Shown: positions 12,817-62,243, counted from the stretch's first letter. The stretch: 64,000 nt of DNA from a virus (IMGVR_UViG_3300048834_000455:25906-89905), one strand, 5' to 3'. Program-made: numbers and translations. Notes: generated from the sequence alone by a model not told the origin.

Positions 12817-13314
12817 ATGCGTAACCTCCGCCTCTTCATCGCCGGAGCCAGTAGTCAGCGCCTGGCTGTGCGCGAGGTCATCGACGCCTGCACCGCCCTC
12901 GGCCACACCGTGACATACGACTGGACCCGGGCGCCAGAGTGGGAGCAAGACTTCCCGCTGACCCGCCTTCAGTCCATCGCCGCAGCCGAGGCCAACATGG
13001 CTGGAGTGCGAGAGTGCTGGGCGCTCATCTGGGTCGTGGACCGCGACCACCCGAGCCACGGAGCACCGTTCGAGGCTGGCGTCGCTTGGGCGTCTGGCAA
13101 GCCTGTCGTCGCGCTTTGGTCGGGAGACCTCGCCGCTATGGACTACTGGATCTACGCGGCTGGAGCGATGGGCCATGCGGTTCACAACGTGCGCAGCGCC
13201 ATCTATGTTCTCTCTGACCTCGTGCTGGGGTTCAGGCCTCCCGAATCTGACTTCGAGACCTTAGCCGAAGCCGACGTTCCCGGGCAGATTCTGCTCGCGG
13301 AGGTGGCGTTGTGA
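12817..13314 (+). CDS. nucleoside 2-deoxyribosyltransferase / nucleotide hydrolase-like protein
   Basis: LFIAG start, [28 protein letters not shown] (G..xE.G.A.A.GKPV NDT motif). Confidence 0.7.
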
Positions 13315-14027
13315 GCACGGGTATCGAGTGGACCGACGAGACTTACAACCCGCTCAGCGGCTGCGACAAGATTAGCCCTGGCTGTGCTCATTGCTACGCC
13401 GAAGTGATGGCCAAGCGCCTGCAGAGGATGGGCCAGCCTAACTACCGCGACGGCTTCAAGCTCACCTTCCACCCGCACATGCTCGACAGACCGCGCCGGT
13501 GGAAACGGCCGCGCATGATCTTCGTCAACAGCATGAGCGACCTGTTCCATGTCGGGGTCCCGTTGGAGTACATCCAGAGGGTCTTCACGGTCATGCGCGA
13601 GACGCCCCAGCACACCTACCAGGTGTTGACAAAGCGCGCTGATCGCCTCGCCTCTCTGGCGCCAGAGATCGACTGGCCGGCCAATGTTTGGCAAGGGGTC
13701 TCAGTCGAGAACCGCCGCTTCACTGACCGCATTGACCACCTTCGAACCGTGCCGGCCACCGTGCGCTTTCTATCGCTAGAGCCTCTACTGGGCCCGCTTC
13801 CGAACCTGAACCTCGAGGGCATCCACTGGGTGATCGTCGGTGGCGAGAGCGGCAACGGTGCGCGGCCGATGGAAGAGGCTTGGGTCCGCGACATCAAGGC
13901 GCAGTGTGACCGCGCGGGCGTGGCGTTCTTCTTCAAGCAGTGGGGAGGCACGAACAAGAAGGCCACCGGGCGCCTGCTCGACGGCCGCACGTGGGACGCG
14001 ATGCCACCAAGAGGGGTGCTCGCATGA
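13311..14027 (+). CDS. phage Gp37/Gp68 family protein (DUF5131, radical-SAM-like)
   Basis: [68 protein letters not shown]. Confidence 0.92.
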
Positions 14028-14788
14028 TCATCGATACCCCACCACCAACGGGCCTAATCCCCATCTCGTTTGACCAGCCCCGCGTTGAGCTCCAAGCGCC
14101 GCTGTCGAAGGCCAAGGGCAAAGCAGAGATGCTCGCGAGATGGCAGGCCGCTATCGACGCCGCAAGCCGTCACCCTGGCACGTTCACCGAGTTGGCCGAC
14201 TACGCGCAGCACCAGCAGGCTATGCGCCTCTGCCGTGACTACCTCGCCGAGGCTATCACCCACGCCCGCAGCAAGTCCGCGAGTGTCGGCGGTGGCCCCC
14301 AAGCGGTCTCGACACCGCGACCGTTCTTCGAGTTCGTGCAGGCTCACCTCGGCGTATACTTCGGCATCGACCTCGCCGCGGTGGCCGAGAACGCCCTCTG
14401 CGCCGAGTACTTCGGGCCGTGCGCAGGGTCGCTTGCATGCGACGCCCTCACGCAGGACTGGGCCGCTGTCACCGGGCCGAGTCGCTGGGGCTGGCTAAAC
14501 CCGCCCTTCTCGCACGTTCTGCCCTGGGTCCGCAAGGCCCGGCTCGAGTGCGCCAGAGGTGCGCGCCTGGTCATGTTGCTCAAGCTCGCGCCCGGCACCA
14601 AGTGGCACATCGAGGAGATTGACGGCCAGAACTGCAGCGTCTTCAAGATGAGAGGGCGCCTGAAGTTCCCTGGCTTCGACCACGGAGCCGCGTTCGACAC
14701 GCAAGTGGTCATGTTTGACGGACTGCCCTTCCGTGAACGCACATGGGACTGGAGGCCTGCGATGAAGGCTGCGGGGTTCGAGGTATGA
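14024..14788 (+). CDS. phage Dam-like N6-adenine DNA methyltransferase
   Basis: STPRPFF, IDLAA..ENA, DALTQDW, WLNPPFS (motif IV), GRLKF. Confidence 0.8.
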
Positions 14789-47120: not shown

Positions 47121-49292
47121 TTGGCCTTTCTAGGCAAAGCACGTACATCACTGGCGAGAATTATTGCGCCCACGTCCGTGACCGAGACGGAAACCAAAAG
47201 GCCACTAACTAGAGCCGACCAGCTCCCCATCTACGTGGATGGGGTTCCTTACTCACACTCCACCGAGATGTCTCTCTCCGAGACCATCGCGAAGGTCAAG
47301 CGCTCACCGGTCACTCTCGGCTGCATCAACGCCTACGTTCGGCGCATCCAGCAACTCACGTTTCGCATCCAGCGCTGGAACCCGGAGAGCCGGCGCTACG
47401 AGTTCATCAACGAGGATCACCCCGTCGAAGAGCGCTGGGACCAGCCCGCCAAGTGGTGCTCTCAGAAGCAGATGCTCAGCGCTACGTGCTTCAGCATGAT
47501 GGGCACGGGCAACTGGCTCGCGACGTTCATCAACAGTGACCGCAAAGACAAGGGTCTGCTTCGCGCGCTGGAGCTGAGCCCGCTTGACCCCGACTTCGTG
47601 GACCCGATCCCAGACGTGCTCGACGTAATCAGCGGCTACTCCCTGCGTCAGGGCGACCCGCGCTCGTCGACGGTTCATCTTCTGTGCAGCCTTGACGGTG
47701 GTCGCTTTCTCTCGGCGACTCCGGGTAGAGGCAAGTTCATCCCGCTAGACCGGATGATCCACGCCAAGTTTTCGACCAACAAGAACCCGTGGTGGGGCCT
47801 GTCGCCGATCGAGGCCGCCGCTCTTGCTATCGACACCGGGACCGTGGCGCAAGCCTGGAACCGCTCCATGGTCGGCAACCGGCTCGAAGAGGGTGGCGTT
47901 CTCGAGACCGAACAAGCGCTGACCCGCGACGAGATTGACGAGGCCAAGCGCAGAATTGCCGCTCAGATAGGCGGCTCAAACGCCGGCTCGCCTATCATCC
48001 TGACCCGTGGCCTGACGTGGAAGAGCACCAACCGTGCTCCCCGCGAGATGGACTACGTGGGCACCGATAAGCGCACCGACTGGAAGATTTGCGCGGCTCT
48101 CGGAGTTCCGCCCGTGATCCTCGGGCAGATGGACGACGCCACGCTCAATAACGCCGAGTTTCAGAAGCGCGACTTCTGGGTGGACAGCGTGCTGCCGTTC
48201 ATGGAGCTGATCCTTGAGTCCGTCAACCACTCGTGGGTGTGGCCGGGATGGGGTCGCGAGGTTCGCCTCTGGTACGATACCAGCAACGTTCTCGCTCTGC
48301 AGGAGAAGCGCCAGGAGAAGGTCGAGGCCTTTGGTCTCCTCCACGACCGCGGCTATCCCGCCAACGCTCTGAATGCGTGGCTCGAGCTTGGGCTTCCCGA
48401 CCTTCCGCCCGAGATTGGCGACAAAAGCTTCATCAAGAGCGGCCTGACCGAATTCGTTGACCAGACCCGGGTCGAGTACGCCGAGGGCGAGATTGTCGAT
48501 GACGAGCCGCCGATGCTGGAAGAGGGTGATGACCCGGAGAAGACCGCCAAGGCCTTCCTGTCCGCGTCTGAGGAGAGAGACGCCTACTGGTTCGCCTTCG
48601 AGGGCCAGCGCGAACGGTGGTACGGCAAGGTCGAGAAGCGCGTGGCCAAGCTCATCGGCGACGACCTCGAAGCAGCCGCCGCTGTTGCCGATAGAGGTCT
48701 GTCCGCGATGGAGAATGCCATCGAGCAACGTGCTGGACTGTGGCGCAAAGAGCTTGAGGGAACGTGGGACCAGATAGCCCAAGAGTTCGGCAAGCGCACT
48801 CACGACGGCCTTGTCAAAGCTGCTCACGGTGGTCAGGAGTTCAAAGCCTGGGACTGGGGCAGAAGCGCTCGCGAGTACATCCGGGAGCGAGTGCGCGACA
48901 GAGTCTCTGCCATTGTCGAGACCACAAAGGGATGGGTTGGCCGGCGCGTTCGCGAGGCCAACATGCCAGACGACGGCGGAGACGCAGGGCAGAACATCCG
49001 CGATCAGGCTCCCGAGTACTCCAAGACCCGTGGCGCCACTATCGGCCAGACCGAGGTCCTCGGTGCCTCTGGATACGGTAGCAATCTGGGCGCCAACAGG
49101 TCTGGTGCCGTCAAGAACAAGATTTGGCTGACCTCGCGCGACGACCGAGTGCGTGACAGCCACCGGACCCTAGAGGGTCAGAAAAGACCGCTCGATCAGC
49201 CGTACAGCAATGGGCTTATGTTTCCTGGAGATCCTACGGGTCCCCCATCCGAGACAATAAAGTGCCGCTGCGTCGAGCTCTATGAGGTGTGA
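47121..49292 (+). CDS. HK97-type portal protein fused to a C-terminal MuF (head morphogenesis) domain
   Basis: Portal motifs WGLSPIEAA, G..NAG...IL..GLTW, ICAALGVPP.ILG; C-terminal IGQTE, KIWLTSRDDRVRDSH..L.GQ...LMFPGDP...ETIKCRC (MuF). Confidence 0.85.
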   Translation: MAFLGKARTSLARIIAPTSVTETETKRPLTRADQLPIYVDGVPYSHSTEMSLSETIAKVKRSPVTLGCINAYVRRIQQLTFRIQRWNPESRRYEFINEDHPVEERWDQPAKWCSQKQMLSATCFSMMGTGNWLATFINSDRKDKGLLRALELSPLDPDFVDPIPDVLDVISGYSLRQGDPRSSTVHLLCSLDGGRFLSATPGRGKFIPLDRMIHAKFSTNKNPWWGLSPIEAAALAIDTGTVAQAWNRSMVGNRLEEGGVLETEQALTRDEIDEAKRRIAAQIGGSNAGSPIILTRGLTWKSTNRAPREMDYVGTDKRTDWKICAALGVPPVILGQMDDATLNNAEFQKRDFWVDSVLPFMELILESVNHSWVWPGWGREVRLWYDTSNVLALQEKRQEKVEAFGLLHDRGYPANALNAWLELGLPDLPPEIGDKSFIKSGLTEFVDQTRVEYAEGEIVDDEPPMLEEGDDPEKTAKAFLSASEERDAYWFAFEGQRERWYGKVEKRVAKLIGDDLEAAAAVADRGLSAMENAIEQRAGLWRKELEGTWDQIAQEFGKRTHDGLVKAAHGGQEFKAWDWGRSAREYIRERVRDRVSAIVETTKGWVGRRVREANMPDDGGDAGQNIRDQAPEYSKTRGATIGQTEVLGASGYGSNLGANRSGAVKNKIWLTSRDDRVRDSHRTLEGQKRPLDQPYSNGLMFPGDPTGPPSETIKCRCVELYEV

Positions 49293-50089
49293 TGATGGGT
49301 AGTCCCTTTCTCCGCGAACGTAAGTCGCTATTCAAAGATCTGGGACTCCAACGTCCCAACCGAGAGGCCCGCACCGTCGCCGGCTACGCGGCCATGTGGA
49401 CGGTCGACCAGATTGGCGACCGAATCATAAGGGGCGCTTTCGAAAAGACCATCCGCGAACGGGGACCAGCGAGTCCCCGTTGTCGTATCAGGTTCGGACT
49501 GAATCACCCTGGAATGACTCACAACGGAGTCGTTATCGGTGTTCTCTCCAAGCTCTACGAGGACGAGATTGGCCTCTTCTACGAGGGCATTCTGGACCGC
49601 ACCACCCAGGGCGAAGATGCTCTGATTCGGCTTGAGAGCGGAAGTCTCGACGGCTCAAGCTTCGCCTACGACATCATGGATTGGGCCAAGGGCGAGGGCG
49701 GCGCCGACGGCGACCGCCACCTCAAGGAACTCAAGTGCTATGAGCTTGGGCCTGTCGACTTCGCTTGCAACGAAGACACGTTCTTCACTGCCCTGAAGTC
49801 ACACGCATTTTTCAAAGAGTTTGACCCGTCTTTACTCGCTTCGTTTAGCGAAGAGATGAAGGCCGGTCGTATGTTCAGCGCTGCAAATCTACGCAAAATC
49901 AAAGCAGCGCATGAATGCCTCGCGGACCTACTGAAGATGGCCGGAGAGATCGAGGCGGATACTGCGCCGCCCGAGCCTCAACCACCAGACGATGTGAAGG
50001 CTCTAGCAGGCACCAGTGAAGGGACCGCCCTCCTCGAAGAGATGCGGTCCCTTTCGCTTTTGCTGAAAGGGAACATCAATGAGTGCTAA
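49292..50089 (+). CDS. HK97-family prohead protease
   Basis: GYAA...DQIGDRIIRGAF, NH, IG, EDEIGL, G.LDGSSFAY, YELGPVDFACN. Confidence 0.88.
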   Translation: MMGSPFLRERKSLFKDLGLQRPNREARTVAGYAAMWTVDQIGDRIIRGAFEKTIRERGPASPRCRIRFGLNHPGMTHNGVVIGVLSKLYEDEIGLFYEGILDRTTQGEDALIRLESGSLDGSSFAYDIMDWAKGEGGADGDRHLKELKCYELGPVDFACNEDTFFTALKSHAFFKEFDPSLLASFSEEMKAGRMFSAANLRKIKAAHECLADLLKMAGEIEADTAPPEPQPPDDVKALAGTSEGTALLEEMRSLSLLLKGNINEC

Positions 50090-51407
50090 CGCCATCATGA
50101 CCGCCGAAGAGGCGAAGCAGATGAAGGAAGTCATCTCCGGGGTCTCGGATCAGGTCAAGGCCTTCCAGGACACCAACCAAAAGCTCCACGGCTTGCTCGA
50201 GAAGCAGCGCGAGGAGATCAAGGCCACTCGCGAGACCAGCGAGGAAACCAAAGACGCCATCGCCCAGGCTACCAAGACCTACGATGCGCAACTCGCCGAC
50301 CTTCGTGGTAACAGCGATGAGTTCATCAAGAAGTTCGAAGCGTCTTACGACGAGCTGAAGAAGCAGATCGACGAGTTCGAACTTAAGCTCAAAAAGGGCG
50401 GGGTCGGCCTGAGCCTGGTTAATGGCCAGGGCCGCGACTTCAAGTCCATCGCCCAGGACGATGAGAGGTTCTGGGGCTGGAAAGCCAACGGTTCGGCGGC
50501 CAGTCCTCAACTGAGGGTCGGCTCCTTCTGGGGCGGTAAGGCGACCAACGTTCTCGGTCACGCTGACGTAGAGAACGTCATCTCAACCGCTCGCCCACAG
50601 AGCATCTTCTCTCTGCCGGTGCTCCGCTCCGAGCATCTGCGCGACCACATGACCGTCATCAAGACCGATGCGATGGCGATCAACTACATCATGGAGAAGG
50701 AACTGACCCTCGGAGCTGCTACCGTGGCCGCCGAAGGCACCAAGCCGCGCACCACCATCGAGTTCGAGGATGTCACCGAGAACATGAAGGTCATCGCGCA
50801 CGGTATGGTGGTGACCCGCCAGCAGATTCTGCAGCTCGGCGCGCTCATGGACTTCTGTGAGAACCGCCTCCGCACCGGTATCCGCCACGTCGAAGACGTG
50901 CAGATCGTCAAAGGTGACGGCACCGGTTCCAACTACCGTGGCCTGATGAACCGCGTCGGCGTGAAGACGTACAACCGCCATCACACGGGAGACAGCAAGC
51001 TCGACACCCTGCGTCGCGCACAGACCCAGCTTCGCCTCGACGAGTTGCAGCCGGACCTGTACCTGCTGAACCCCGAGGACTGGGAAGACATCGAGCTTCA
51101 GAAGGGGACCGATGACCACTATGTGTGGGCAGCCGTCACCACTGTTCAGGGGCCGATGCTCTGGAAGCTCCCCGTATTCGAGACCACGGCTATCGACGCC
51201 GGAGACTTCCTCACGGGAGCCTTCGCCTACGGTGCGATGATCTACGACCGCGAGGAAGCAACAGTCCAGGTCTTCGAGCAGCACGCCTCGCTGGCCGAGA
51301 CCAACCAGGCTTACGTTCGCGCCGAGCAGTTCTCCATGCTCGTCGTGCCGCTGCCTGGTGCGTTCCTGAAGGGTGAATTCCCGCAGGTCGAAGGCTCCGG
51401 CTCGTAA
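50079..51407 (+). CDS. major capsid protein (HK97 fold with delta domain)
   Basis: N-terminal coiled coil; VAAEGTKP, EDVQIVKGDGTG..YRGL, LNPEDW..IEL.K, LWKLPV, VRAE. Confidence 0.92.
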   Translation: MSANAIMTAEEAKQMKEVISGVSDQVKAFQDTNQKLHGLLEKQREEIKATRETSEETKDAIAQATKTYDAQLADLRGNSDEFIKKFEASYDELKKQIDEFELKLKKGGVGLSLVNGQGRDFKSIAQDDERFWGWKANGSAASPQLRVGSFWGGKATNVLGHADVENVISTARPQSIFSLPVLRSEHLRDHMTVIKTDAMAINYIMEKELTLGAATVAAEGTKPRTTIEFEDVTENMKVIAHGMVVTRQQILQLGALMDFCENRLRTGIRHVEDVQIVKGDGTGSNYRGLMNRVGVKTYNRHHTGDSKLDTLRRAQTQLRLDELQPDLYLLNPEDWEDIELQKGTDDHYVWAAVTTVQGPMLWKLPVFETTAIDAGDFLTGAFAYGAMIYDREEATVQVFEQHASLAETNQAYVRAEQFSMLVVPLPGAFLKGEFPQVEGSGS

Positions 51408-51408
51408 T

Positions 51409-52422
51409 ATGCTGGGGGAGACTCTCTCTGGGGGTCTCCCCCGCATCGGAGCCTACGCTACCGAGTACTACTACATCGACCACCTGGTCTCTATCTGGCT
51501 CGCACTGCCAGAGGAGGCCAGGGGGTCCTGGTGGGTGACCGAGAAAGCCGCCTTCCGTCTCAACGACTACGGGGTGCCGACCGAGTTCGCGCAGGTCTTC
51601 GCTGACCGCGACCGCCTGAAAGGTGCCCTTGCTCGCGACAAAGGCAAAGACCCCATCCTGACCGCCTCGTTCGCGAACTGGCGCGACGTGACCAACGCAG
51701 GGCGCCCCAACCCGTACCTGCCCCACGGTCAAGGCGGGCCAGGAAACGGCAACGACAACTGGCTACGCAACGCACGCAAGCTCGACCTCATGCTGTGCCC
51801 TACGCCCTACGCTACCACGGGCTTTGAAACTCTCTCGACAGCAGTCATCCACGGCCAACCGAAGACCGACCGATGGGTGGGCCACAAGCCGAAGAACGAG
51901 AACCCTGTCGTTGCCATCTCCTTTCGCTGGAGAGAGACAGCGAGCGCCCTTGAGCACTACCGCCCGCATCTGCTCCAATTCGTGGAAGAGGCGCAGGCCT
52001 ATGGGTGGGAGGTGCTTGGCCACGGCCACCCTCTCGCGTTCGAGAAGCGATTCCGTCAGGTTTGGAAGAAGCTCGGAGTTCGTCGAACGGCCGACTTCGA
52101 GAAGGTGCTCAACGAGGCCGACGTCTACGTCGCCGACTGCAGTAGCAGCTCCTTCGAGTTCGCGGCTACTGACCGCCCCGTCGTATTCCTCGACGCCCCT
52201 TGCTACAAGGGATGCAACTTCGCCCCGCGCTTCACTCACGACCGCGCAGGCCTCACCTGTCGCGACCCTCGACAGCTTGCGAGCACCGTCGCTCTAGCCC
52301 TCGCCGACCCCGATCACGTTGCCGCCGCCCGAGAGGATGTTTGCGCCGAGCTTTTCGGCCCTCGGGACGGCCAATCTTCGCAAAGAGCAGCGAGTGCTCT
52401 CCTGGAGTTTTATGGAGCTTGA
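51409..52422 (+). CDS. TagF/TagB-like CDP-polyol phosphotransferase (GT-B fold), copy 1
   Basis: PHG, GQPKTD, GHGHP, ADVYVADCSSSSFEFAATDRPVVFLD and DGQSSQRAA match CDP-glycerol glycerophosphotransferase family patterns (G.PR.D, HP, D.SS..FEF...RP). Confidence 0.72.
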   Translation: MLGETLSGGLPRIGAYATEYYYIDHLVSIWLALPEEARGSWWVTEKAAFRLNDYGVPTEFAQVFADRDRLKGALARDKGKDPILTASFANWRDVTNAGRPNPYLPHGQGGPGNGNDNWLRNARKLDLMLCPTPYATTGFETLSTAVIHGQPKTDRWVGHKPKNENPVVAISFRWRETASALEHYRPHLLQFVEEAQAYGWEVLGHGHPLAFEKRFRQVWKKLGVRRTADFEKVLNEADVYVADCSSSSFEFAATDRPVVFLDAPCYKGCNFAPRFTHDRAGLTCRDPRQLASTVALALADPDHVAAAREDVCAELFGPRDGQSSQRAASALLEFYGA

Positions 52423-53935
52423 GCTAGACATTCTGGCCACGGAACCGCACTTCCGCGACCATCTCCGCCCTGTTCACGAAGCGCTACTAGCAGCGGGCGT
52501 TAAGGCTTCGTGGCATGAGAGCACGGACACGCTCACGCAGCGTAAAGCCACAGGGCTTGCCGCCGCTTATGGGGACCTCGAGAAACTTCGCAAGACCGGC
52601 CGGCAGGTCATCTTCGCCGAGCACGGTGCCGGACAGAGCTACGCGGGGTCGAACCTTTCCCACCACACGAGCTACAGCGGCGGAGGCCACCGACACGGCG
52701 TCATCGCCTTCCTGACCCCGGGCCAGTATTCGACCAAGCGCAACCGCGAGATCCACGCCTGGACGCCCTGCTACGAGGTAGGTTGCCCCAAGCTGGACGC
52801 CTGGGCTGGATTCACCCTGGAGAAGTACCAGAAGCCCCTGGTGGTCATCTCCTGGCACTGGGACTGCATGGTGACCCACGAGACCCGCAGCGCCTTCTAC
52901 GAGTACCGCCAGGCCGTTGTCGAGGTGTCCAAGGGCGCAGAGTTTGACCTCGCCGTCCACTCCCACCCGAGAATCGCTAAGCAGGTCAAGGCGTGGGCTG
53001 AGAGCGTCGGTATCGAGTGGATCGAGACCTTTGACGAGGTGCTGAAGCGCGCGAACGTTTATGCCGTCGATAACAGCTCGACGCTCTTCGAGTTCGCGGC
53101 CACTGGAAGGCCTGTCGCGGTGCTCAACTCCCGCCACTACCGCCGCCACGTGGACCACGGCTTGCGCTTCTGGCGAGAGGCTGGCATCGGTGTCAACTGC
53201 GACAAGCCGGCCGACCTCCACAGGTGCCTGCTGACCGCCTTGTCCGACCCCTTGGAGTATCGCACCGCCCGTGAGGCCAGTGTCCGTAGAGTTTACGGCG
53301 CGCCACTCGGTCAGGCCACGAGCCTGGCAGTCGCCGCCATCATCGAGATCATCAGCGAGGAGAGAGTGATTGTGAGCCAACATAGAGTTAGAGCCAGATC
53401 GAGCGCCATCGGCTATGCCGGGGCCGTCAGCAAGGGGTGGGTCATCGACCTCTACCCCAGTCACGTTGTCGTCACCGACAATCAGGGGCGAGAGTTTACC
53501 CGAGACTACGCACCAAAGGGCAACTGCGACCCCGAGTACCGCGCTAGAGAAATGGTCGGCACTGGTGTCTATGACCCCATCGCGGTGCCCAGGACCGCCC
53601 CTCTCGGCACCGTCTCGACCCCGCCCAGGCCCTCCGAGAACAAGATTGCGCCGCCTCCGCAGGAACACAAGCAGACGCCTCCTCATGCGGTCGGTGCTGA
53701 TGCGAAGCCGCCCCACCTCGCCGACGAAGCCGAAGACGCTCTAGATGAAGAGGCGCTAGATGAGGCCATCCTTGAGTGCGTGCGCCAGGGCCAAGGCAAG
53801 ACCGCGACCAAGAAAGAGCTTGGCGCGACAGAGGCTTTCACGCAGAATCAAGTCGTCGAGGCCTGGAATCGACTTCAGGAGAACGGTGACATCGTCGAGG
53901 GAGACAAGCCCGGCACCTACAAGGTCGCGGAGTAA
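52412..53935 (+). CDS. TagF/TagB-like CDP-polyol phosphotransferase (GT-B fold), copy 2, with a ~190-aa C-terminal extension
   Basis: EHGAGQSY, GCPKLD, HSHP, AVDNSSTLFEFAATGRPVAVLN; paralogous to the preceding gene. Confidence 0.72.
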   Translation: MELELDILATEPHFRDHLRPVHEALLAAGVKASWHESTDTLTQRKATGLAAAYGDLEKLRKTGRQVIFAEHGAGQSYAGSNLSHHTSYSGGGHRHGVIAFLTPGQYSTKRNREIHAWTPCYEVGCPKLDAWAGFTLEKYQKPLVVISWHWDCMVTHETRSAFYEYRQAVVEVSKGAEFDLAVHSHPRIAKQVKAWAESVGIEWIETFDEVLKRANVYAVDNSSTLFEFAATGRPVAVLNSRHYRRHVDHGLRFWREAGIGVNCDKPADLHRCLLTALSDPLEYRTAREASVRRVYGAPLGQATSLAVAAIIEIISEERVIVSQHRVRARSSAIGYAGAVSKGWVIDLYPSHVVVTDNQGREFTRDYAPKGNCDPEYRAREMVGTGVYDPIAVPRTAPLGTVSTPPRPSENKIAPPPQEHKQTPPHAVGADAKPPHLADEAEDALDEEALDEAILECVRQGQGKTATKKELGATEAFTQNQVVEAWNRLQENGDIVEGDKPGTYKVAE

Positions 53936-53938
53936 TCC

Positions 53939-54268
53939 TTGGGCGCCATCTCCGACCGCTCAGGCGTTGACCTTGACGCGATCAAGCGCTTCCTCAACAT
54001 CAACGGCACCGCCGAGGATACGGACTTAGAGGAGATGCTGGCCGAGGCCAAGGATCTGGCCGACCAGCACTGCGACAACGAGTTCCTCGACGCCGACGAC
54101 GAGGAGGGTCCGATTCCCCCTCGCGTTGAGCGCTGGATCAAGGCCACAGTGGCGCGATTCTACGAGATTCGCGAGAACGGCAAGAAGTCGGAGTCGGTGA
54201 ACGGCGTTGGTGGCGTTGACTACGGCGACGTGGACTACAGCGGCCTGACATGGATACCGTACCTGTGA
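53939..54268 (+). CDS. head-tail connector (HK97 gp6-like)
   Basis: LDAIKRFLNI...ED..LEEML..A, VARFYEIRE; position after the capsid module. Confidence 0.75.
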   Translation: MGAISDRSGVDLDAIKRFLNINGTAEDTDLEEMLAEAKDLADQHCDNEFLDADDEEGPIPPRVERWIKATVARFYEIRENGKKSESVNGVGGVDYGDVDYSGLTWIPYL

Positions 54269-54621
54269 TCGGCGCCTCTGCTTTCCGCGACACCGTGAAG
54301 ATCTTCGAGCGGATGGATTCGCGGGTACCAACCGGGACCCAGCCAACCTTCGCCCTTGTCGACACCTGGAAAGCCTGCGTCATCGAGCTTAACGCTAGGG
54401 CGCGCAAGGCTTACGGCAGCCTGGAGTCCGAGGTCACGCACGAGATCAAGATGCGGGGCACCCCCGAATTCAGGATGGGTCGAACCGAGTTCGAGGTGGG
54501 CGCGCTACGTTTGAAGCCGCTGGCTCCTCCTCGAGTTCCGGGGCATCACCGCAGACCCATCACGCTCATCCCGTGCAAGGACGTGACCCAGAATCGACCA
54601 CCGGAAGGGAGCGGCTCATGA
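54265..54621 (+). CDS. head closure / head-tail adaptor
   Basis: Synteny; W.ACV...VTHEIKMR beta-rich pattern. Confidence 0.6.
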   Translation: MIGASAFRDTVKIFERMDSRVPTGTQPTFALVDTWKACVIELNARARKAYGSLESEVTHEIKMRGTPEFRMGRTEFEVGALRLKPLAPPRVPGHHRRPITLIPCKDVTQNRPPEGSGS

Positions 54622-55028
54622 AGGCAGTCTTTCAAAGCTTTAAAGCCAAGGCTATCGGCTTGATTCAGGGCGTCTCCGAGGAGCGAACCTTCGCGGTCGC
54701 CAACTCGCTGCGCACGCACATCCTGATTTCCCTCTCCAACGACCCGCCGCGCACAGGCCGCACCTACAGGGTGCCGGGCACGAATGTCTTCTATACCGCG
54801 TCGTCGCCCGGTGAATACCCGGCACTGGCCACGGGCGAGCTGCGAAAGTCGGTTGCCAAGGCTGGGGTCAGTGTGACCAAGGGCTTCGGCGGCGTCAGGG
54901 CCAGCTTCAACCCTGGCGTGGCGCCTCACGGTATCGAGTTAGAGAAAGGCCTGCGCCCCTGGTTCAGCAAGGCCGCTGCGGAGAAGCAGGCTGACATGGA
55001 AGCGCAGCTCAAGCGGAAGTGGTTCTAG
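54618..55028 (+). CDS. HK97 gp10-like neck protein
   Basis: YTASSPGEYPALATGELRKS, LEKG.RPW. Confidence 0.7.
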   Translation: MKAVFQSFKAKAIGLIQGVSEERTFAVANSLRTHILISLSNDPPRTGRTYRVPGTNVFYTASSPGEYPALATGELRKSVAKAGVSVTKGFGGVRASFNPGVAPHGIELEKGLRPWFSKAAAEKQADMEAQLKRKWF

Positions 55029-55029
55029 C

Positions 55030-55443
55030 GTGACCAGCCACGAGAGCTTCCTGACCACGGTTTACAACCGGGTGACGCAAGACGCCGTTCTCCAAGAGCT
55101 TAGCGGCGGGGAGGTTCGCCTCTTCCACAAGATGGCCACCCCTGACCCGCCGTTCCCCTACCACGTCTACAAGCTCAGGTTCGAGCTTGTAGACGAGATC
55201 ATTGCCGATGGGCAGTTGCTCTGGGACGTGTGGGATTACCACCCCGACTCCGCCCGTGCCCTGCAGATGGGCGCGAGAGTCAAACAGCTTCTCCACAACC
55301 ACGTCGACATCGCCCTGTATGGCGCGAGTCTGGCGTTCGCACGGATGGACACCGTGGAGACTGACAACGAAGAAGTTCAGCGCGTGGCGCTCAGGTTCTC
55401 GACCTTCTGGCCGGACCTGGACCTCGTGCAAACACCCGGCTGA
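55030..55443 (+). CDS. tail terminator / tail completion protein
   Basis: VYNRV..D..L, PPFPY.V, DVWD; located just before the major tail gene. Confidence 0.65.
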   Translation: MTSHESFLTTVYNRVTQDAVLQELSGGEVRLFHKMATPDPPFPYHVYKLRFELVDEIIADGQLLWDVWDYHPDSARALQMGARVKQLLHNHVDIALYGASLAFARMDTVETDNEEVQRVALRFSTFWPDLDLVQTPG

Positions 55444-55465
55444 CCCCCGGATCATAACAAACGCC

Positions 55466-55490
55466 AAGGGCTCCATACGGGGCCCTTTTT
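55466..55490 (+). terminator. terminator-like hairpin before the major tail gene
   Basis: AAGGGCTCC-ATAC-GGGGCCCTT followed by TTT. Confidence 0.6.
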
Positions 55491-55505
55491 CATTGAGGAG
55501 GCCCG

Positions 55506-56171
55506 ATGTCTTTAGCGATTCAGTTGACGGCGCTCACGGAGGATACTCCCGAGCGCCTGGTAGTGCATTCCGGGGTGATGTACCGAAACATCAACATTGC
55601 CGAGCTTGAAGCGGCGGACGGCACTTTCGCCGACGCCATCAACCCGGAGAACACCTGGACCCAGAGCGGCAGAACGTTCACGCCTGAGCCCTTCGGCGCC
55701 ACCAAACAGGGCTTCACTATCGAGACCGGCATGCCCGTCGAGCCCATCCCTGACGTAGATGGCGCCCTCGGACCGACCGTAGGCCTCATGGAGGTGACCA
55801 GCTTCGCGCCGACTTTCGCCGGCAACCTCCTCGAGATGGCCGACTACCGCAAGATGAAAGAGGGCCTGGCTGCTGCCGACGCCTCCTTGACGGCGAGCGG
55901 GCTGTGGAAGATCGAGCCTCGCGCTTACGTCACCAAGAACGACCACCTCGGCAACCTCGCGGTGTTCTGTCAGACCTCGAACCCGAACACCAATCATCTC
56001 TGGCTAGCGGTGCTGTTCAATCCGATTGGCGGCGCCTCTTCGATTCAGCTCACCCGGGGCGCCAACGTGCTGCCGGTGACCTACCGCGGATGTGCAAGCC
56101 TGAGCGCCTCCACTCAGCCACCCATTCGCTTCTACGTTCCTCGCAACGCTGCAGACGGAAGCGGTAGCTAA
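55506..56171 (+). CDS. major tail (tube) protein
   Basis: Strong SD GAGGAGG; TP..L...G..Y.N, FGATKQG, VDG..G pattern; precedes the chaperone and tape measure genes. Confidence 0.75.
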   Translation: MSLAIQLTALTEDTPERLVVHSGVMYRNINIAELEAADGTFADAINPENTWTQSGRTFTPEPFGATKQGFTIETGMPVEPIPDVDGALGPTVGLMEVTSFAPTFAGNLLEMADYRKMKEGLAAADASLTASGLWKIEPRAYVTKNDHLGNLAVFCQTSNPNTNHLWLAVLFNPIGGASSIQLTRGANVLPVTYRGCASLSASTQPPIRFYVPRNAADGSGS

Positions 56172-56596
56172 TGCGCGGTCACCTCGTTACGCTAGAGGTT
56201 GCTGGCGAAGTCGAGATCAGGCGGCTCTCTCCTGGAGACGCCGACCAGATCCTCGACATCCTCTCGTCCGTCATCCAGGGCGCCGCGAACCGGCAACTGT
56301 TGACCGGCGTACCCTTCGACCTCTCGAACCCTGCCTCGGTGTTCGCCACCTTTCTCTCTGGCCTCCATGTGGCGCGCAAGCAGGCTCGCGAGTTCGTGAT
56401 TTCGCTGCTGGCGGAGGATGTTCGTCCTCAAGTCACATTCGGAGACCTCGGCACGCTGCTTACGGCAATGACCACCCACCCGGATGTCGTTGGTTTTTTC
56501 GCCAACGCGCGGCCGGCCCTGGAAAGCCCGCTGGCCGCGCATCTACGAGAGCAGTTCAAGACGACGACGCCAGAAGAGACCGCGCCCGAGTCTTAG
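56171..56596 (+). CDS. tail assembly chaperone (gpG-like)
   Basis: Between the tail tube and tape measure genes; contains a slippery heptamer. Confidence 0.7.
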   Translation: MRGHLVTLEVAGEVEIRRLSPGDADQILDILSSVIQGAANRQLLTGVPFDLSNPASVFATFLSGLHVARKQAREFVISLLAEDVRPQVTFGDLGTLLTAMTTHPDVVGFFANARPALESPLAAHLREQFKTTTPEETAPES

Positions 56597-56943
56597 ACCT
56601 CGTCTGCGCCCGCTATGGGTGGACCGAGGATTATATCTTCCACGACTACCGCACGCACGTCGGCCCCTATCTCTCTTACGAGCGATGGATCGAGGTGATC
56701 GAGGCGGTGGTGGACGCGAAAGTCCGCGAGCGTCGGGACGCCTGGCAGCAGTCGGCGTTCGTGGCGTGGAGCCAGTACTTCTTCCAGCCTCGCCACTCCG
56801 AGTCATCGGAGCGGGCGAGCTATGGGGAGTGGCTGGAGATGTTCGGCCTAGCCGACCCCGACAGCGCAGAGCCCGAGCAGACTCCTGAAGAGGTCTTGGC
56901 CGGCGCACGCGAGCTTATGGCTCAGTTTGGAGTAGACCTTTAA
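56494..56943 (+). CDS. -1 frameshift extension of the tail chaperone (gpGT-like)
   Basis: T-TTT-TTC at 56494-56500 in X XXY YYZ phase; the -1 frame is open to TAA at 56943 (...LDLVCARYGWTEDYIF...). Confidence 0.75.
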   Translation, partial: FFRQRAAGPGKPAGRASTRAVQDDDARRDRARVLDLVCARYGWTEDYIFHDYRTHVGPYLSYERWIEVIEAVVDAKVRERRDAWQQSAFVAWSQYFFQPRHSESSERASYGEWLEMFGLADPDSAEPEQTPEEVLAGARELMAQFGVDL

Positions 56944-59900
56944 TGGCACTTGGTGAAGTTTTCAGCTTAAAAGCCGTGATCGAAGTCATCACGGGTGGTG
57001 CCGAGCAGAAGATCGACTCCGTCGAGAAATCAGGCCGTCGCCTTGGGCAGACCTTCGGGTCCTCGTTCAAGGGGGCGGCCACTTCTATGCTCGCCTTCGT
57101 TGGGGCGGCGTCCGCGATTCAGGCGGTGGGCAACGCGGTAAACGGCGCGGTCAATGCCACCATCACCTTTGAGAAGGGCGCCCGCCAACTCAACACCATC
57201 CTGAAGCTCAACGAGAAGCAGCTAGCAGACTACACCGAGAGCATCCGCACCCTTGGTACCGAGCTAGACATCAACGTCTCTGCGACCGAGGCCATGGCAG
57301 CCGCTTACGACGTGGCGCAGGCAGGCTTCACGAAGGCTGCCGACAACGCCCTGGTGATGGAGACAGCGCTGAAGACTTCGGCTGCTGCTGGCGTCTCTGC
57401 TTCTCTCGCTGCCAACCAGATTTCTGGAACGCTCAAGGCTTACGGGCTGGCCGCTACGGATGCGCAACGGGTCTCTGACGTGTACTTCAAGACCATCGAG
57501 ACCGGTATCATAACGTTCGAGCAATTCGAGCACGGATTGGGCGCCGCCAACGCCGTTGCCGCTTCTGCTGGAGTGTCATTCGAAGAGGTGATGGCGGCCG
57601 TTGCAACCGCGACCGGCCAGGGCATCAAGGCCAGCACGGCCTTCGACGGCATCAAGACCTCTATTGCCAACCTAAGTGCGCCTTTGGACTCCCAGAAGAA
57701 GGCAATGGCCGAGTACGGGATCGTCATCGACCAGAACACGCTTCGCCAAAATGGCTACCAGCAGACGATAATCGATATCGTCAAGGCGACCGGTGGAAAC
57801 AGCTCCGCGTTACGCAATATTCTTGGAGACGTTACCGCCTATCAGCTCGCTCTCTCTCTGATCTCCAACGAGGGGAAGATCGCGGCCGACAACCTCCGCG
57901 ACATGAACAACGCGCTTGGAGCTCAAGAAGCGGCCCTGGTCGAGATGCGCAAGAGCACCTCCTTCCAGCTCGACCAGATGAAGGCAGCGGCCGAGGGCCT
58001 GGGCATCGCGCTGGTCAGCAATTTCGGTGGGCCTGCAACCCAGGCGATTCAGACCGTCACCGCCGCCCTCGTCGAGATGGACAAGTTTGTGAAGAGCCTG
58101 TCCAAGGGCGAGGGCGGTCTTCTCGGGGCCTTGACTCGCGGTTTCCAGAACACGTTCCCGGCCACGGCGCAAATGCTATCAGAGTTGGGCGACACATTGT
58201 TGGAACTGGTTGGAATGGTCCAGAACTGGTTCGCAGCCTTTGGCGGGCCCGAGGCCACCGCCGCGACCACGGCTGTTGACTTCCTGTTGTCCTCCATCCT
58301 CAAACTAGCCGACATCTTGGCCAACGCCATCGGCCTGGCCGGCAAGCTCTTAGAGGGAGTCGTCGTTTGGGCGCGAGACCTCTCAACCGTCTTGGGCGCA
58401 ACGTTCGCAGTCATGGGCCAGGCTTGGGCCCAGGTGGTGGACGGCATGTCCGGGATCTTTGAAAACTTCGCCTATGTTGTCGAGAGCGTCTGGAAGGGTG
58501 TTATCGACGGCATCTTGGGCACCATTAAGGCTCTCCCGGACCAGTTCCGGGGCGTCTTTGCTGGCATTGAGAAGGACCTGGAGAAGGCCAGCGACTCCTT
58601 CAAGGCCAAGGCTCCCAAGGCGGGTTTTGTCGATAGCGTCTCCAAGATTGTAGGCGCCCCCGAATTCGTTCGAGAAAACCTCCCCCAGACCATCGCCGAC
58701 GCTAGGGCCACCAACGCCCGGCCGGCACCAGTCAAGGCCGCAACGCCCGAGCAGGCCAAAAAGGCGCAGGCGGCCATTAGTGGCCTCTTTGGTGGCGTCA
58801 AGGACTTCCTGACCACCGGCAAGCTTCCGGTTGCAGAGAAGGCCGTTGCTGCCCCCGGTGCGCCAGCCGCCATTCCCGCCCTGCCTCCTCCCGATCCAGC
58901 AGCCGCCACCAAGGATATCGAGGCGAGAGCGGACGCTATCAAGAACGAGCTTTCGCTGGAGAAGATTTCCCTGGCCGAGGGCGCCAAGCGATATCAGGCC
59001 CTGTTCAAGGAAGCCCAGAAGGCCAAGCTCAGCGGCGAGGACCTCCACAAGGTGGAGCAAGCCCTCTTCGACGTTCGCCAGAAGATGTTCGACCAGTCCG
59101 AGAAGGCCATGAAAGCCACCGAGGAGCTTCGCGTTGAGCGGACTAAGCTTGTCCAGGGAGAGACCGCAGGCCTACTGGCCGCTCTTGACATCGAGAAGCG
59201 TGAACGTGCGAAGGCCGGCGCCGAATCCGTGGAGCTCGAAGCGTGGTATGGTGCGCAGCGTATCGCCATCTTTAAGGCCGACGCCGAGAAGAAGGCCGAG
59301 ACCGCAAAGAAGCTTGTTGACGCTCAGAACGCCCTCGCTGACTCCGCCGCCAAGGCGAACCAAGACGCACTAGTGGCCAGCGACAAGCCCGAGGAAGCCG
59401 CCCTGGCTGGTCTCGAGCAGCAGAAGGCCGAGATGATGCGCGGTTTGCTGGAGCAGAAAGATGCCATCATCAAGGCGGGTGGCGACAAGCTCAAGGCCGA
59501 GCAGGACTACCAAGCCGCGGTGCTCGCCAACGAGCGCTCTTATCAAGCGCAGCGCCTCAAGATTACCAAGGATGCCGCAAAGGAGCGCAATCAAGCCGAG
59601 ACTAGCGCCAAGGTGACCATCCTGAAGAACGAGGCCGCCTCTTCGGACAACCCCGAGGAGGCGCGCAAGAAGAACCTCGAGGCTGAGAACATCGAGCGCC
59701 TGCAGCAGATCAAGGGACAGGTGGAAGCCTACCGCACGGCCGGCGTGGATCAGTTGGTCATTGACCGCTACATTGCTAGCGAGCAGAAGAAGATCAAGGC
59801 CGAAGCCGAGGGCGGCAAGGCGGATGAGAAGGGCAAGGGCAACCAGAGCCCGGTGCAGTCGATCCAAGAAGCCTTCGCCGGGATGAACAAGCTCGGCTTC

Positions 59901-60155
59901 AGCATCGAGACCGGCACAGGCAGGGTCAAGCGGCGCGGAGATGCGGCGGTTACGGCAGCGGCCAACAAGCTCTCTGCCGACGTTGGTGCCCTGCGTGGGG
60001 TGGGCGCTGGCGACAAGCAGGAGCCGCTCAACGACGTGCTCACCATTAACCTTGTCGACGCAAGCGGCACCGTGTTCTCGGACAGCGTTTCGCGTGGATC
60101 TAGCGGCAGCGTGGACATGTCGACCACCTACGAGCTTGGACGGCTTGGCGCATGA
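56943..60155 (+). CDS. tape measure protein (TP901-like)
   Basis: 1070 aa, Ala/Gly-rich and helical; AAYDVAQAG, SDVYFKTIETG.ITFEQ, GVSFEEV.AA.AT.T.QG core motifs. Confidence 0.92.
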   Translation: MALGEVFSLKAVIEVITGGAEQKIDSVEKSGRRLGQTFGSSFKGAATSMLAFVGAASAIQAVGNAVNGAVNATITFEKGARQLNTILKLNEKQLADYTESIRTLGTELDINVSATEAMAAAYDVAQAGFTKAADNALVMETALKTSAAAGVSASLAANQISGTLKAYGLAATDAQRVSDVYFKTIETGIITFEQFEHGLGAANAVAASAGVSFEEVMAAVATATGQGIKASTAFDGIKTSIANLSAPLDSQKKAMAEYGIVIDQNTLRQNGYQQTIIDIVKATGGNSSALRNILGDVTAYQLALSLISNEGKIAADNLRDMNNALGAQEAALVEMRKSTSFQLDQMKAAAEGLGIALVSNFGGPATQAIQTVTAALVEMDKFVKSLSKGEGGLLGALTRGFQNTFPATAQMLSELGDTLLELVGMVQNWFAAFGGPEATAATTAVDFLLSSILKLADILANAIGLAGKLLEGVVVWARDLSTVLGATFAVMGQAWAQVVDGMSGIFENFAYVVESVWKGVIDGILGTIKALPDQFRGVFAGIEKDLEKASDSFKAKAPKAGFVDSVSKIVGAPEFVRENLPQTIADARATNARPAPVKAATPEQAKKAQAAISGLFGGVKDFLTTGKLPVAEKAVAAPGAPAAIPALPPPDPAAATKDIEARADAIKNELSLEKISLAEGAKRYQALFKEAQKAKLSGEDLHKVEQALFDVRQKMFDQSEKAMKATEELRVERTKLVQGETAGLLAALDIEKRERAKAGAESVELEAWYGAQRIAIFKADAEKKAETAKKLVDAQNALADSAAKANQDALVASDKPEEAALAGLEQQKAEMMRGLLEQKDAIIKAGGDKLKAEQDYQAAVLANERSYQAQRLKITKDAAKERNQAETSAKVTILKNEAASSDNPEEARKKNLEAENIERLQQIKGQVEAYRTAGVDQLVIDRYIASEQKKIKAEAEGGKADEKGKGNQSPVQSIQEAFAGMNKLGFSIETGTGRVKRRGDAAVTAAANKLSADVGALRGVGAGDKQEPLNDVLTINLVDASGTVFSDSVSRGSSGSVDMSTTYELGRLGA

Positions 60156-60586
60156 GTGCAGAGTGGAACGCGACCACCATCTCGTTCTGCGGGATAGAGG
60201 TGGGACCGCCGCACATCCCCCGCGAGCTACCGACGCCAGACTATGGCCTTCGCGTGAAGAAGACCTACATGAGCGAAGGCGCGGAATTGCCAGGGCTCTG
60301 CGTCAAGGAACCGCTGGGCGGTCACGACTCCTACGGGACCATCGCCTTCAGGCTGAGCGCTATGAGCAAGGCCAACGTCGACACCTTCCTGACTGCCGCC
60401 TTCGACCTATGGACTCCGCGCACACTGGCGATTTCCGCGCCTGGTGGCATCGTCTCGTGGACGGTGTGCTTCGGCGAGAACGGGTTCACCCATCGTCTGA
60501 TTCCCGGCAGGGGCTACTTCGACACCGAGGCCTGGATATGTGGATTCAAGCTTGAGGTGCTGACCATCGGTCCCGAGGGCTCCTAG
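60152..60586 (+). CDS. putative distal tail / tail tip protein
   Basis: Immediately follows the tape measure gene. Confidence 0.5.
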   Translation: MSAEWNATTISFCGIEVGPPHIPRELPTPDYGLRVKKTYMSEGAELPGLCVKEPLGGHDSYGTIAFRLSAMSKANVDTFLTAAFDLWTPRTLAISAPGGIVSWTVCFGENGFTHRLIPGRGYFDTEAWICGFKLEVLTIGPEGS

Positions 60587-61983
60587 TGTTCATTCCTGAT
60601 AGCACCTACACGGCTGATGATGTCCTGCTGCCGAGAACCACCGTCGAACTCATCATCGACGGCGACGACTTCTCGGACTACTACCTCGGCTACGATCTTG
60701 GCGTCTCCTCGCGCGGTCAGCAGGCGACTGGCACAATCCGCCTCAAAGACCGCGACGGAGCGCTCGCAAACAAGGTCTCGCAGTTCGACCAGAGCTTCGA
60801 CAAATGGCTCTCGCACAACATGACCGACGAGCGCACCATCTCGCTGACGGTGACGCAGGGCGAGAAGGTGACGGACTACCCGGTGCTGCTCCCCGGCGTG
60901 CCGAGCTGGGACAACGACGGGACCCTGAGTTGGGCCGTCACAGACCTCACGCCGCTCTTGAACAAGGACAACCAGAGCGCCACGGATGTCGTCTGGGACG
61001 AGCAGGGTGTTGACGACAACAAGAGCGTGTCCGACATCGTGGCCACGTTAGCGACGATGGCCGGCGTCTCCATCAGCCACACCGCGACCAACTGGGATGT
61101 GCGCACGTGGCGAATGACCGCCGAGAACCTTCTCTCCAAGCTCGACGACCTCTGCCGGCCGACGCAAAGCTATCGCCGATGGGACGGCGATGCCCTCATC
61201 CTGGAAGCCCTGAACGAGGCGCTCTCGCCGGCCTTCCACGCCATCGACCGGTTCCACATCGCGAGCCTCACCGCGACCACCGATGACAGCGGACTCCGCA
61301 CATTCTTCAAGGCTTTCCGTTTGCGGTCACAGGCGAGCGCATTGGCCGAGCCCAGAGAGGGCCGCACGGTAGGGCGCGTGGTCGAGATTACGTTCCCGCC
61401 CTCGGACTTCGTGCGCATCCGCACCAAGCAGGCGTTTGGCGTCATCGGTGAGGGCGTGTTCTACAGCGGCGAAGACGAGGTGAACTCGACCGAGGACCCG
61501 CAAACCGAATTCTACAGCCCCGACGCTGGAGTGACCAAGGCTGACCGCTGGCTCGGCACGTTCACTCCCGACATTGGCCCTGCCGAGTATCAATGGTGGT
61601 GGTGGGTGAGCGCCGAGGGCGGAGTCTACAACGCGGCCGACGTCATGATCGAGGGCTTCGATTTCGAGCAAGCCGTCTCGGTAGCGGAGGCCAAGTTCGG
61701 CCGGCGCCCCGAGTACAGCAACCTCGCCACCGAGCTTATCCGTGAGCCCGAGACCTTCGCGGCAATGATGGCCGCGATCGTCCTGGAGGTGCTCTGGTCC
61801 GTGCGCCGCTTCTCGCTGTCCACCCCGTGGCTACTCCCGCAACGTGAGGGCACGTTTATGAACGTCACCCACGCAAAGCATCGTCTCGCCTCCGTGAAGA
61901 TGCTCGTGAACGGCTGGAGGCACAGCCACTCGTGGGAGAGCGGCTGGAACAACAGTTACGACCTACGGGCGAAGCTCTCGTGA
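60586..61983 (+). CDS. putative tail hub / baseplate protein
   Basis: 465 aa, beta-rich and acidic; synteny. The exact start is uncertain. Confidence 0.55.
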   Translation: MFIPDSTYTADDVLLPRTTVELIIDGDDFSDYYLGYDLGVSSRGQQATGTIRLKDRDGALANKVSQFDQSFDKWLSHNMTDERTISLTVTQGEKVTDYPVLLPGVPSWDNDGTLSWAVTDLTPLLNKDNQSATDVVWDEQGVDDNKSVSDIVATLATMAGVSISHTATNWDVRTWRMTAENLLSKLDDLCRPTQSYRRWDGDALILEALNEALSPAFHAIDRFHIASLTATTDDSGLRTFFKAFRLRSQASALAEPREGRTVGRVVEITFPPSDFVRIRTKQAFGVIGEGVFYSGEDEVNSTEDPQTEFYSPDAGVTKADRWLGTFTPDIGPAEYQWWWWVSAEGGVYNAADVMIEGFDFEQAVSVAEAKFGRRPEYSNLATELIREPETFAAMMAAIVLEVLWSVRRFSLSTPWLLPQREGTFMNVTHAKHRLASVKMLVNGWRHSHSWESGWNNSYDLRAKLS

Positions 61984-62243
61984 ACCTCGGCCAGGCTATC
62001 GGCAAGACCGCGTGGCAGTACCGAGGCAGTGACCGCGCAAAGGTCGTGGGGCCGGCGGGCCGAGGCTATGACATCGAGCTCATGGGCGGCGACGTGGCGC
62101 GCGCTTGCATCTCGCACCTGCCCGACCTCGAGAACGAGCAGTGGGTCACGGTGGTGCAGGTCGGCGAAGGCGCGTGGGAGATCGTGGGCACGGCCAGCAA
62201 GGCGCCCCGCGGCGACTTCGCACCGGAACCCGAGGGTTCGTAG
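61980..62243 (+). CDS. small tail-tip protein (OB-fold-like)
   Basis: GTG at 61980 overlapping the previous stop; short and beta-rich. Confidence 0.5.
   Translation: MNLGQAIGKTAWQYRGSDRAKVVGPAGRGYDIELMGGDVARACISHLPDLENEQWVTVVQVGEGAWEIVGTASKAPRGDFAPEPEGS

Follow-up and report, generated by a model that had tools for sequence, protein, structure and literature searches.

C-terminal Gly-Ser as a candidate tag on virion proteins for TagF-like transferases encoded beside the capsid gene of a tailed virus

Why should five proteins encoded in one viral late operon, from the major capsid protein to the tail-tip region, all end in Gly-Ser? The question is raised by IMGVR_UViG_3300048834_000455:25906-89905, a 64,000-nucleotide stretch of DNA (the window, in which all positions are counted) that makes up the right-hand part of an 89,905-bp IMG/VR virus record with a CheckV completeness of 86%. 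As a sequence-only reading of the window had stated, five genes on its + strand encode such tails, and we read the same ends from the sequence: the major capsid protein of the HK97 type (50079..51407; PF05065, E 5e-31) ends in QVEGSGS (tag codons 51390..51404), the probable head-closure (Hc1) protein (54250..54621; a weak match to phrog_25, E 0.0033) in PPEGSGS (54604..54618), the major tail (tube) protein (55506..56171; phrog_885, E 4e-20) in AADGSGS (56154..56168), a 144-residue protein encoded after the tape measure gene (60152..60586) in GPEGS (60575..60583), and an 87-residue open reading frame (ORF) in the tail-tip region (61980..62243) in PEPEGS (62232..62240). Directly after the capsid gene, also on the + strand, lie the genes for two putative transferases, T1 (51409..52422) and T2 (52412..53935). 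Comparisons of these tails and enzymes across viral and cellular loci favor a model, to which we assign a probability of roughly two in three, in which C-terminal Gly-Ser is a portable tag singling out virion proteins for modification by TagF-like transferases that the phage itself encodes.

The tails are neither a chance feature nor a repeated piece of DNA. The pattern of Glu or Asp followed by Gly-Ser, single or doubled, at the very C-terminus is matched by exactly five of the 849 six-frame ORFs of at least 40 amino acids (aa) in the whole 89,905-bp contig, all five being late structural genes, while a GS end of any kind is found on 12 of the 849. Against the background in 80 related loci (27 GS-ended among 5612 ORFs), the probability that at least five of 18 late genes would be GS-ended is 2e-8, which rules out a chance origin. 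A DNA repeat is ruled out because the tail codons differ among the five genes (TCC, TCG, AGC or TCA for Ser and GGC, GGG, GGA or GGT for Gly), and the earlier view of the tail as a motif at the protein level therefore stands. Nor can the tails be explained by read-through of the stop codon or as linkers to the gene that follows, as the five genes end in TAA, TGA, TAA, TAG and TAG, respectively, the downstream frames differ, and tagged genes elsewhere sit before unrelated genes. No GS tail is present on the large terminase TerL, the portal, the protease or the tape measure protein, as had been noted before, or on T1, T2, the Ad1 adaptor, the tail terminator or the chaperone.

What are the two enzymes encoded next to the capsid gene? 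Judged from their sequences and predicted structures, T1 and T2 are GT-B-fold transferases of the TagF-like kind (PF04464; CDP-glycerol glycerophosphotransferase, the TagB/TagF/TarL family). T1, a divergent paralogue of 337 aa, passes the PF04464 cut-off of 22.1 bits with a score of 33.3 bits. T2 carries its TagF-like domain in residues 1-316 and is the paralogue closer to a widespread phage family, with 444 homologues, many of which have PF04464 on record. The two share 28% identity over 272 residues (E 2e-23), identifying them as paralogues. Their AlphaFold models, with predicted local distance difference test scores of 94 for T1 and 87.9 for T2, superpose on TagF (PDB 3l7k for T1) with Z scores of 21.2 (root-mean-square deviation 3.7 over 306 residues) and 20.5 (3.6 over 297 residues), respectively, and on TarL with Z scores of 19.4 and 20.0. 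At the level of sequence, the best match in the PDB is TarL at a marginal E of 0.011, and a profile of the T2 family gave no match to PDB sequences at E <= 1.

The residues conserved in both families point to active enzymes. In an alignment of 24 sequences, the T1 family has invariant H106, H205, H207, D243, E250 and R256. Passages of a study on TarL describe two histidines as essential in the family, H300, which corresponds to H444 of TagF, and H433 (PMC10901376). In the HMMER alignment, TarL H433 falls on H207 of T1, the second His of a GHGHP motif and invariant in the 24 sequences, and the equivalent residue of T2 is H185 (GHAHP). An HG motif in the N-terminal half contains H106 of T1 (PHGQGG, invariant) and H71 of T2 (EHGAGQ, nearly invariant); these residues are likely the partner of the second His, their equivalence to H444/H300 being suggested by position in the modeled fold only.

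If the tails are addressed to these enzymes, tail and enzyme should be found together elsewhere. With the T1-family alignment as query, we retrieved 73 IMG/VR loci containing a T1/T2-like (T-like) gene. On the strand of the enzyme gene 102 of 2643 ORFs end in GS compared with 14 of 2900 on the opposite strand; after removal of duplicates the counts are 90 of 2356 and 13 of 2581 (p = 1.6e-17, a statistic that ignores kinship among loci that are not phylogenetically independent). GS is the most enriched of all terminal dipeptides on the coding strand of the 73 loci, and in comparison to the coding strand of the control loci described below (11 of 1810) the odds ratio is 6.5 (p = 1.2e-12). Of the 73 loci, 49 contain one tagged ORF or more and 29 contain two or more.

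The 90 tagged ORFs, pooled for family scanning as one set rather than as true alignments, include many virion proteins. Pfam identifies capsid proteins of five families (PF05065, 17; Phage_capsid_4, 6; SU10 MCP, 2; Mu gpT, 1; T4 Gp23, 1), five tail tubes of three families, two head completion proteins and one gp6-like connector, and PHROGs agree with these identities. The presence of tags on capsids of five unrelated families and on several families of tube proteins argues against shared descent. A single T-like gene is present in 68 of the 69 loci with an hmmsearch match, making the T1/T2 pair a feature of the lineage studied here, and in 10 of the 69 the T-like gene directly follows a GS-ended ORF. 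The family extends much further, as the T1-family profile matches 3712 clusters at E <= 1e-3, and 1081 at E <= 1e-30, among 1.84 billion representative proteins (50% identity clusters). As separate observations on the 73 loci, a 1041-aa ORF with an S77 domain in locus L101 ends in GSGSSGS, and the loci L119, L129, L132, L142, L159/L160 and L164, which have no GS ends, have at least two coding-strand ORFs ending in -(V/A)AA. Across all 73 loci, "AA" ends number 65 on the coding and 30 on the opposite strand and "VAA" ends 19 and 2; these ends may be an alternative tag or an effect of composition.

The same association is seen from the side of the capsid. The four closest homologues of the capsid protein (88, 66, 65 and 39% identity) end in ASGS, GSGS, GSGS and VEGS, whereas none of 20 more distant homologues is GS-ended. 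The longest contigs recorded for homologues of the capsid protein, of T1 and of T2 have lengths in common (22268, 3939, 3557 and 7302), a pattern suggesting that close relatives may keep capsid and enzymes together. A single-sequence scan of IMG/VR with the capsid gave no match, and a metagenome scan gave distant loci only. The control set contains 80 IMG/VR loci with capsids 30-38% identical to this capsid; none of the 80 contains a blastp match to T1 or T2. Three of these 80 control capsids end in GS, compared with nine of 12 distinct capsids of this capsid's own family in enzyme-bearing loci (p = 5e-8), the other three of which end in AS. GS tails are thus not equally common in relatives without the transferases.

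Cellular genomes provide a further comparison. At 23 loci with a full-length T-like gene, in Chloroflexota, Acidobacteriota, Actinomycetota, Coriobacteriia and others, 29 of 696 coding-strand ORFs are GS-ended versus 5 of 721 on the other strand, whereas at 21 loci with only a partial TagF-like match, the genes of which are presumably those of ordinary cell-wall enzymes, the counts are 5 of 770 and 4 of 753. In a metagenome-assembled genome (MAG) of an actinomycete, the tagged ORF encodes an Hc1 protein with an SGSGS tail and adjoins the T-like gene. Contig NZ_JBLRWX010000055.1 of a Natronococcus sp. MAG, an apparent haloarchaeal provirus, contains a T-like gene and four GS-ended ORFs, namely a major head protein, a major tail protein, a fibre-like protein and one of unassigned function, and its presence there means that the module crosses the divide between bacteria and archaea. 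Finally, a tblastn search of 50,697 GenBank phage records with T1 and the T2 domain gave a sole match, Virus Rctr41k. Its T-like gene lies two genes 3' of a protease-capsid fusion gene and its tails are AEGS on the capsid-protease, LPGS on the major tail protein and VEGS on the protein after the tape measure; spacers of 90 and 65 nt follow the capsid-protease and major tail genes. The fusion is an 871-aa ORF (11619..14234 of Rctr41k), annotated as "capsid protein and protease", in which an S77 prohead-protease domain lies close to the N-terminus. The gene at the position of the post-tape-measure gene of our phage ends in EVEGS; common ancestry of the two post-tape-measure proteins was considered and set aside, the pair showing no BLAST similarity. 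Thus, the tails co-occur with a transferase family encoded beside the capsid gene both in this phage and in many unrelated viruses, as the sequence-only reading had anticipated.

How much of the tail is the tag? The sequence-only reading included the acidic residue, and this part does not hold: the residue at position -3 of the 90 tagged ORFs is S in 18 cases, A in 17 and E in just 7, with a wide range of others behind these. Every one of the six Ser and four Gly codons occurs, the frame is constant and Ser is drawn from both codon boxes. By these sequence criteria the core of the tag is Gly-Ser-COOH, often as SGS or GSGS. The acidic residue bears on an entirely different explanation, in which the tails are a by-product of translational coupling, with GAR-GGN-(Ser) codons holding the Shine-Dalgarno (SD) sequence of the next gene and the protein motif being functionless. 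In agreement with this explanation, the gap to the next start is -4 to +1 nt for all five tagged genes in the window, GAGGG or GGGAG lies 6 nt ahead of the start in three cases and GGAAG 9 nt ahead in one; moreover, in our comparison of the last 18 nt of the 90 tagged ORFs with those of 666 other ORFs, all seven tagged ORFs with E/D at -3 contain an SD-like 4-mer and six of the seven have the next ORF within 15 nt. Because Glu at -3 is found where the following gene abuts closely, the Glu/Asp codons ahead of the tag in this phage probably double as the ribosome-binding site for the gene that follows. Coupling accounts at most for this residue, however, and not for the terminal Gly-Ser, as an SD-like sequence 5-10 nt ahead of an abutting start explains only Glu among the end residues. 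The SD-like GAAGG of the capsid gene sits 14 nt from the next ATG, coupled genes without the tag in this operon have ends such as YEV, VAE and KWF, and two tagged genes of Rctr41k are followed by the spacers mentioned above. More generally, SD-like 4-mers are not in excess at GS ends (34 of 90 versus 232 of 666), the next ORF begins more than 60 nt away from 43 of 85 tagged ORFs, and, as noted, the frame is constant and both Ser codon boxes are used. For the GS core, we therefore consider coupling largely refuted by these sequence patterns and, as an explanation of the tails, extremely improbable.

T2 suggests another possible role for the tails. It has about 170 extra residues (residues 324-507; 53381..53935), with folded parts in the predicted model: a small beta domain (324-390), a disordered Pro-rich linker (397-442) and a confidently predicted winged-helix-like end of three helices and two strands (446-505). 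These parts are absent from most family members, and the modeled domains could serve to dock T2 onto the particle or onto DNA. It is common for short C-terminal motifs to serve as binding signals, and the tag might accordingly be a docking signal instead of an acceptor, with GS-COOH bound by T2, through its two extra folded domains, or by another factor that is carried on or in the particle, or with the tag recruiting a protease or chaperone during assembly. Most related loci, however, have one T-like gene of about 320 aa without extra domains and yet have tags, and the catalytic-type His motifs, invariant in both families, point to an active enzyme. We regard a pure docking role as highly unlikely.

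Returning to the tag as a mark for modification, we envisage that T1 and T2 would be made from the same late operon as their substrates, directly after the capsid gene, and that Gly-Ser-COOH, single or doubled, would mark exposed multi-copy virion proteins for them. In the most likely chemistry, a group would be transferred from a host-made nucleotide-activated donor to the hydroxyl of the terminal Ser; the donor might be CDP-glycerol or CDP-ribitol by family resemblance, with a sugar nucleotide also possible. One paralogue would probably start the modification and the other extend or vary it, resulting in a coat over head, neck, tube and tip. We infer the action of the enzymes on the tail, Ser as acceptor, the nature of the donor, the division of labor between T1 and T2 and any biological benefit from the observed tails, from enzyme family and fold, and from a co-occurrence of tag and enzyme that is both statistical and cross-lineage. 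The genes found around T-like genes fit a biosynthetic role. Among the scanned neighbors (134 of 173 neighbors within 1.8 kb, being the first 150 less the 16 longest) are virion genes, including eight portals as well as proteases and terminases, and tailoring genes, including about seven methyltransferases (five of the FkbM type), four GT2 and four Glyco_transf_7C proteins, three rhamnosyl-transferase-like proteins and two pyruvyl transferases, and some T2 homologues (P0116, P0138, P0139, P0151) are fused to GT4 or GT2 domains. This pattern of genes suggests that the T-like enzyme may be the constant part of a variable kit for building a glycan or polyol-phosphate.

Several observations weigh against this model. 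On the enzyme side, T2 alone falls under the PF04464 cut-off (14.2 bits, E 5.6e-4), and UDP-GlcNAc 2-epimerases tie with TagF as the fold match (Z 21.3 for T1 and 20.7 for T2), so that fold alone does not fix the family. No cytidylyltransferase (PF01467) gene was found in the 86%-complete contig, and a CDP-polyol donor would therefore have to come from the host. On the side of the tags, the loci are not phylogenetically independent samples and the statistics correct for duplicates only, and the tagged ORFs include non-structural ones (two methyltransferases, one cytidylyltransferase and one T-like protein). The three GS-ended control capsids have no T-like gene on their contigs, which are only 16-39% complete. 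Conversely, a coding-strand GS-ended ORF is absent from 24 of the 73 T-like viral loci, some of which are short fragments and some of which may use other tails, and from nine of the 23 full-length cellular loci, and in a tenth, from Flagellimonas, the sole GS-ended ORF encodes a 2428-aa protein ending in DGS. The nine include both Halalkalibacter isolates, which have no GS end in 21 kb; these two and the Flagellimonas strain are cultured isolates with a full-length T-like gene, and their genes may represent cellular uses of the same enzyme family. Finally, the modification itself is a prediction from co-occurrence.

Loci with the gene and no tags, those of Halalkalibacter among them, speak for a third alternative, in which the T-like enzymes act on other targets, for example polymers of the host envelope or lipid-linked precursors, with exclusion or release as the outcome, or else on DNA, while the tails serve assembly, flexibility or docking and the co-occurrence reflects shared ecology or lineage. 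According to the TarL study cited above, TagF-like enzymes normally use lipid-linked polyol-phosphate acceptors (PMC10901376), and the neighboring glycan-tailoring genes could equally serve cell-wall work. Against this, the T-like gene lies inside the head-tail operon, in part directly after a GS-ended ORF and with portal, protease and terminase genes as neighbors; tags occur on unrelated families of capsid and tube proteins; the enrichment is confined to full-length family members, with other TagF-like loci showing none; and C-terminal modification of virion proteins has a precedent in sections of two reports on mycobacteriophages (PMC12363180, PMC12619734). We therefore consider this alternative unlikely, and prefer the reading of Gly-Ser as a substrate tag.

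Is this precedent an instance of the same system? According to papers that cite the work on Che8, Corndog and Myrna (PMC12363180, PMC12619734, PMC11256854), the capsid and tail-tube subunits of these mycobacteriophages bear glycans at their C-termini; phage glycosyltransferases attach them, Che8 gp110 and Corndog gp38 being essential. The parallel drawn by the sequence-only reading is borne out by the ends of the proteins, as the Che8 capsid ends in KTGS and its tail protein in SDGS and the Corndog capsid in LVGS. Two further observations belong with those that weigh against our model: the Corndog tail tube ends in KGDS and not in GS, and only one of 30 Myrna coding sequences checked (50-100 kb) ends in GS. 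In Myrna, gp98 (locus L218, 376..921, 181 aa) ends in GGGLAGGS and lies directly before gp99 (335 aa). As in the mycobacteriophage system, phage-encoded transferase genes here go together with virion-protein C-termini, T1 and T2 lying between the capsid and adaptor genes, and as in Corndog, in which they lie between portal and protease, the enzyme genes are inside the head module. The enzymes differ. Corndog gp35 is a TylF-like methyltransferase, gp37 has a weak GT2-like match and gp38 is a GT25 protein, and the known mycobacteriophage enzymes are GT-A, whereas T1 and T2 are TagF-like GT-B enzymes; tblastn with T1 and T2 gave no match in mycobacteriophage records among the 50,697 GenBank phage records. 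Also in contrast to the mycobacteriophages, five proteins are tagged here, neck and tip included, the T-like system spans many phyla and an archaeon and is known here from sequences alone, and the chemistry may be polyol-phosphate instead of sugar. By analogy, the system would work like the mycobacteriophage one, but it is no member by enzyme family. Accordingly, the proposal of O-glycosylation by mycobacteriophage-like transferases stands in that tags co-occur with enzymes; O-glycosylation itself is not established, since T1 and T2 are TagF-like GT-B enzymes unrelated to those glycosyltransferases, and we consider polyol-phosphate at least as likely.

Similarly, T1 and T2 can be compared with the cellular members of their own fold. 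They resemble TagB, TagF and TarL in the GT-B fold (Z 19-21), the score of T1 above the PF04464 threshold, the invariant His aligned with TarL H433 and the second invariant His in an HG motif, and differ from them in being small, in having a protein Ser rather than a lipid-linked glycan as the presumed acceptor and in a sequence similarity that is marginal. They also resemble TagF-like capsule polymerases of Gram-negative bacteria (Cps3D, PDB 8qoy; 8a0c) in the TagF-like GT-B domain (Z 18.7-19.6), and the fusions of some T2 homologues to GT4 or GT2 recall the combination of TagF-like and ordinary glycosyltransferase domains in those polymerases. However, the capsule polymerases are large, multi-domain enzymes acting on lipid-anchored capsule primers, whereas T1 and T2 are two stand-alone enzymes in a virion operon with protein tags. 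Our literature searches gave no paper in which phage virions are modified with the help of a TagF-like enzyme or a Gly-Ser tag.

The remaining genes place the tagged proteins in a conventional order. The late operon is on the + strand, tightly packed and starts at 44.8 kb of the window, with genes for the small and large terminase, a portal/Mu-F-like fusion, an S78 prohead protease, the HK97-type capsid, T1 and T2, followed by the Ad1 adaptor, the probable Hc1, an unnamed protein, the tail terminator, the major tail protein and a chaperone pair, and ending with the tape measure (56943..60155), the 144-aa protein, a 465-aa protein, the 87-aa ORF and a large protein truncated by the contig end. 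The portal (PF04860) and the Mu-F-like head-morphogenesis domain (PF04233) are in a single 723-aa ORF (47121..49292). Between 56171 and 56943 lie two ORFs in different frames, the first of 141 aa and the second, of 82 aa, ending at the tape-measure start, as is typical of frameshifted tail-assembly chaperone pairs. Neither the 144-aa protein nor the 87-aa ORF matches a Pfam or PHROG family. An Atlas structure comparison gives the former a tail-tube-like fold with a template modeling score of 0.55, a lead only, and it is possibly a minimal distal-tail or tube-like protein. The GTG start of the 87-aa ORF at 61980 overlaps the stop of the upstream gene, and an alternative start is at 61932.

Freeman et al., writing on mycobacteriophage virion glycosylation in Cell Host Microbe in 2023, reportedly found few signs of glycosylation among phages at large. 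If the model proposed here is correct, self-modification of the virion would be widespread and modular among uncultured tailed viruses and not an oddity of a few mycobacteriophages; the enzymes would belong to a different family, and a two-residue tag would direct them. Going further, we tentatively speculate that this tag directs a soluble TagF-like enzyme to build a phosphodiester-linked polyol-phosphate chain on protein; the resulting protein-anchored, teichoic-acid-like coat, possible though doubtful on present comparisons, would be a portable module acquired repeatedly by tailed viruses that infect haloarchaea and bacteria of many phyla, and would have gone unseen because almost no cultured phage has it. 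For annotation, head-tail operons that combine a TagF-like gene with GS-ended structural proteins can be read as carrying a candidate virion-modification module. The model would open the study of virion coats outside the animal host, including their roles in stability, stickiness and masking from host defences or decoys. It would also point to a possible new protein modification, a Ser-linked polyol-phosphate, and provide a very small genetically encoded handle for the site-specific decoration of proteins or phage particles.

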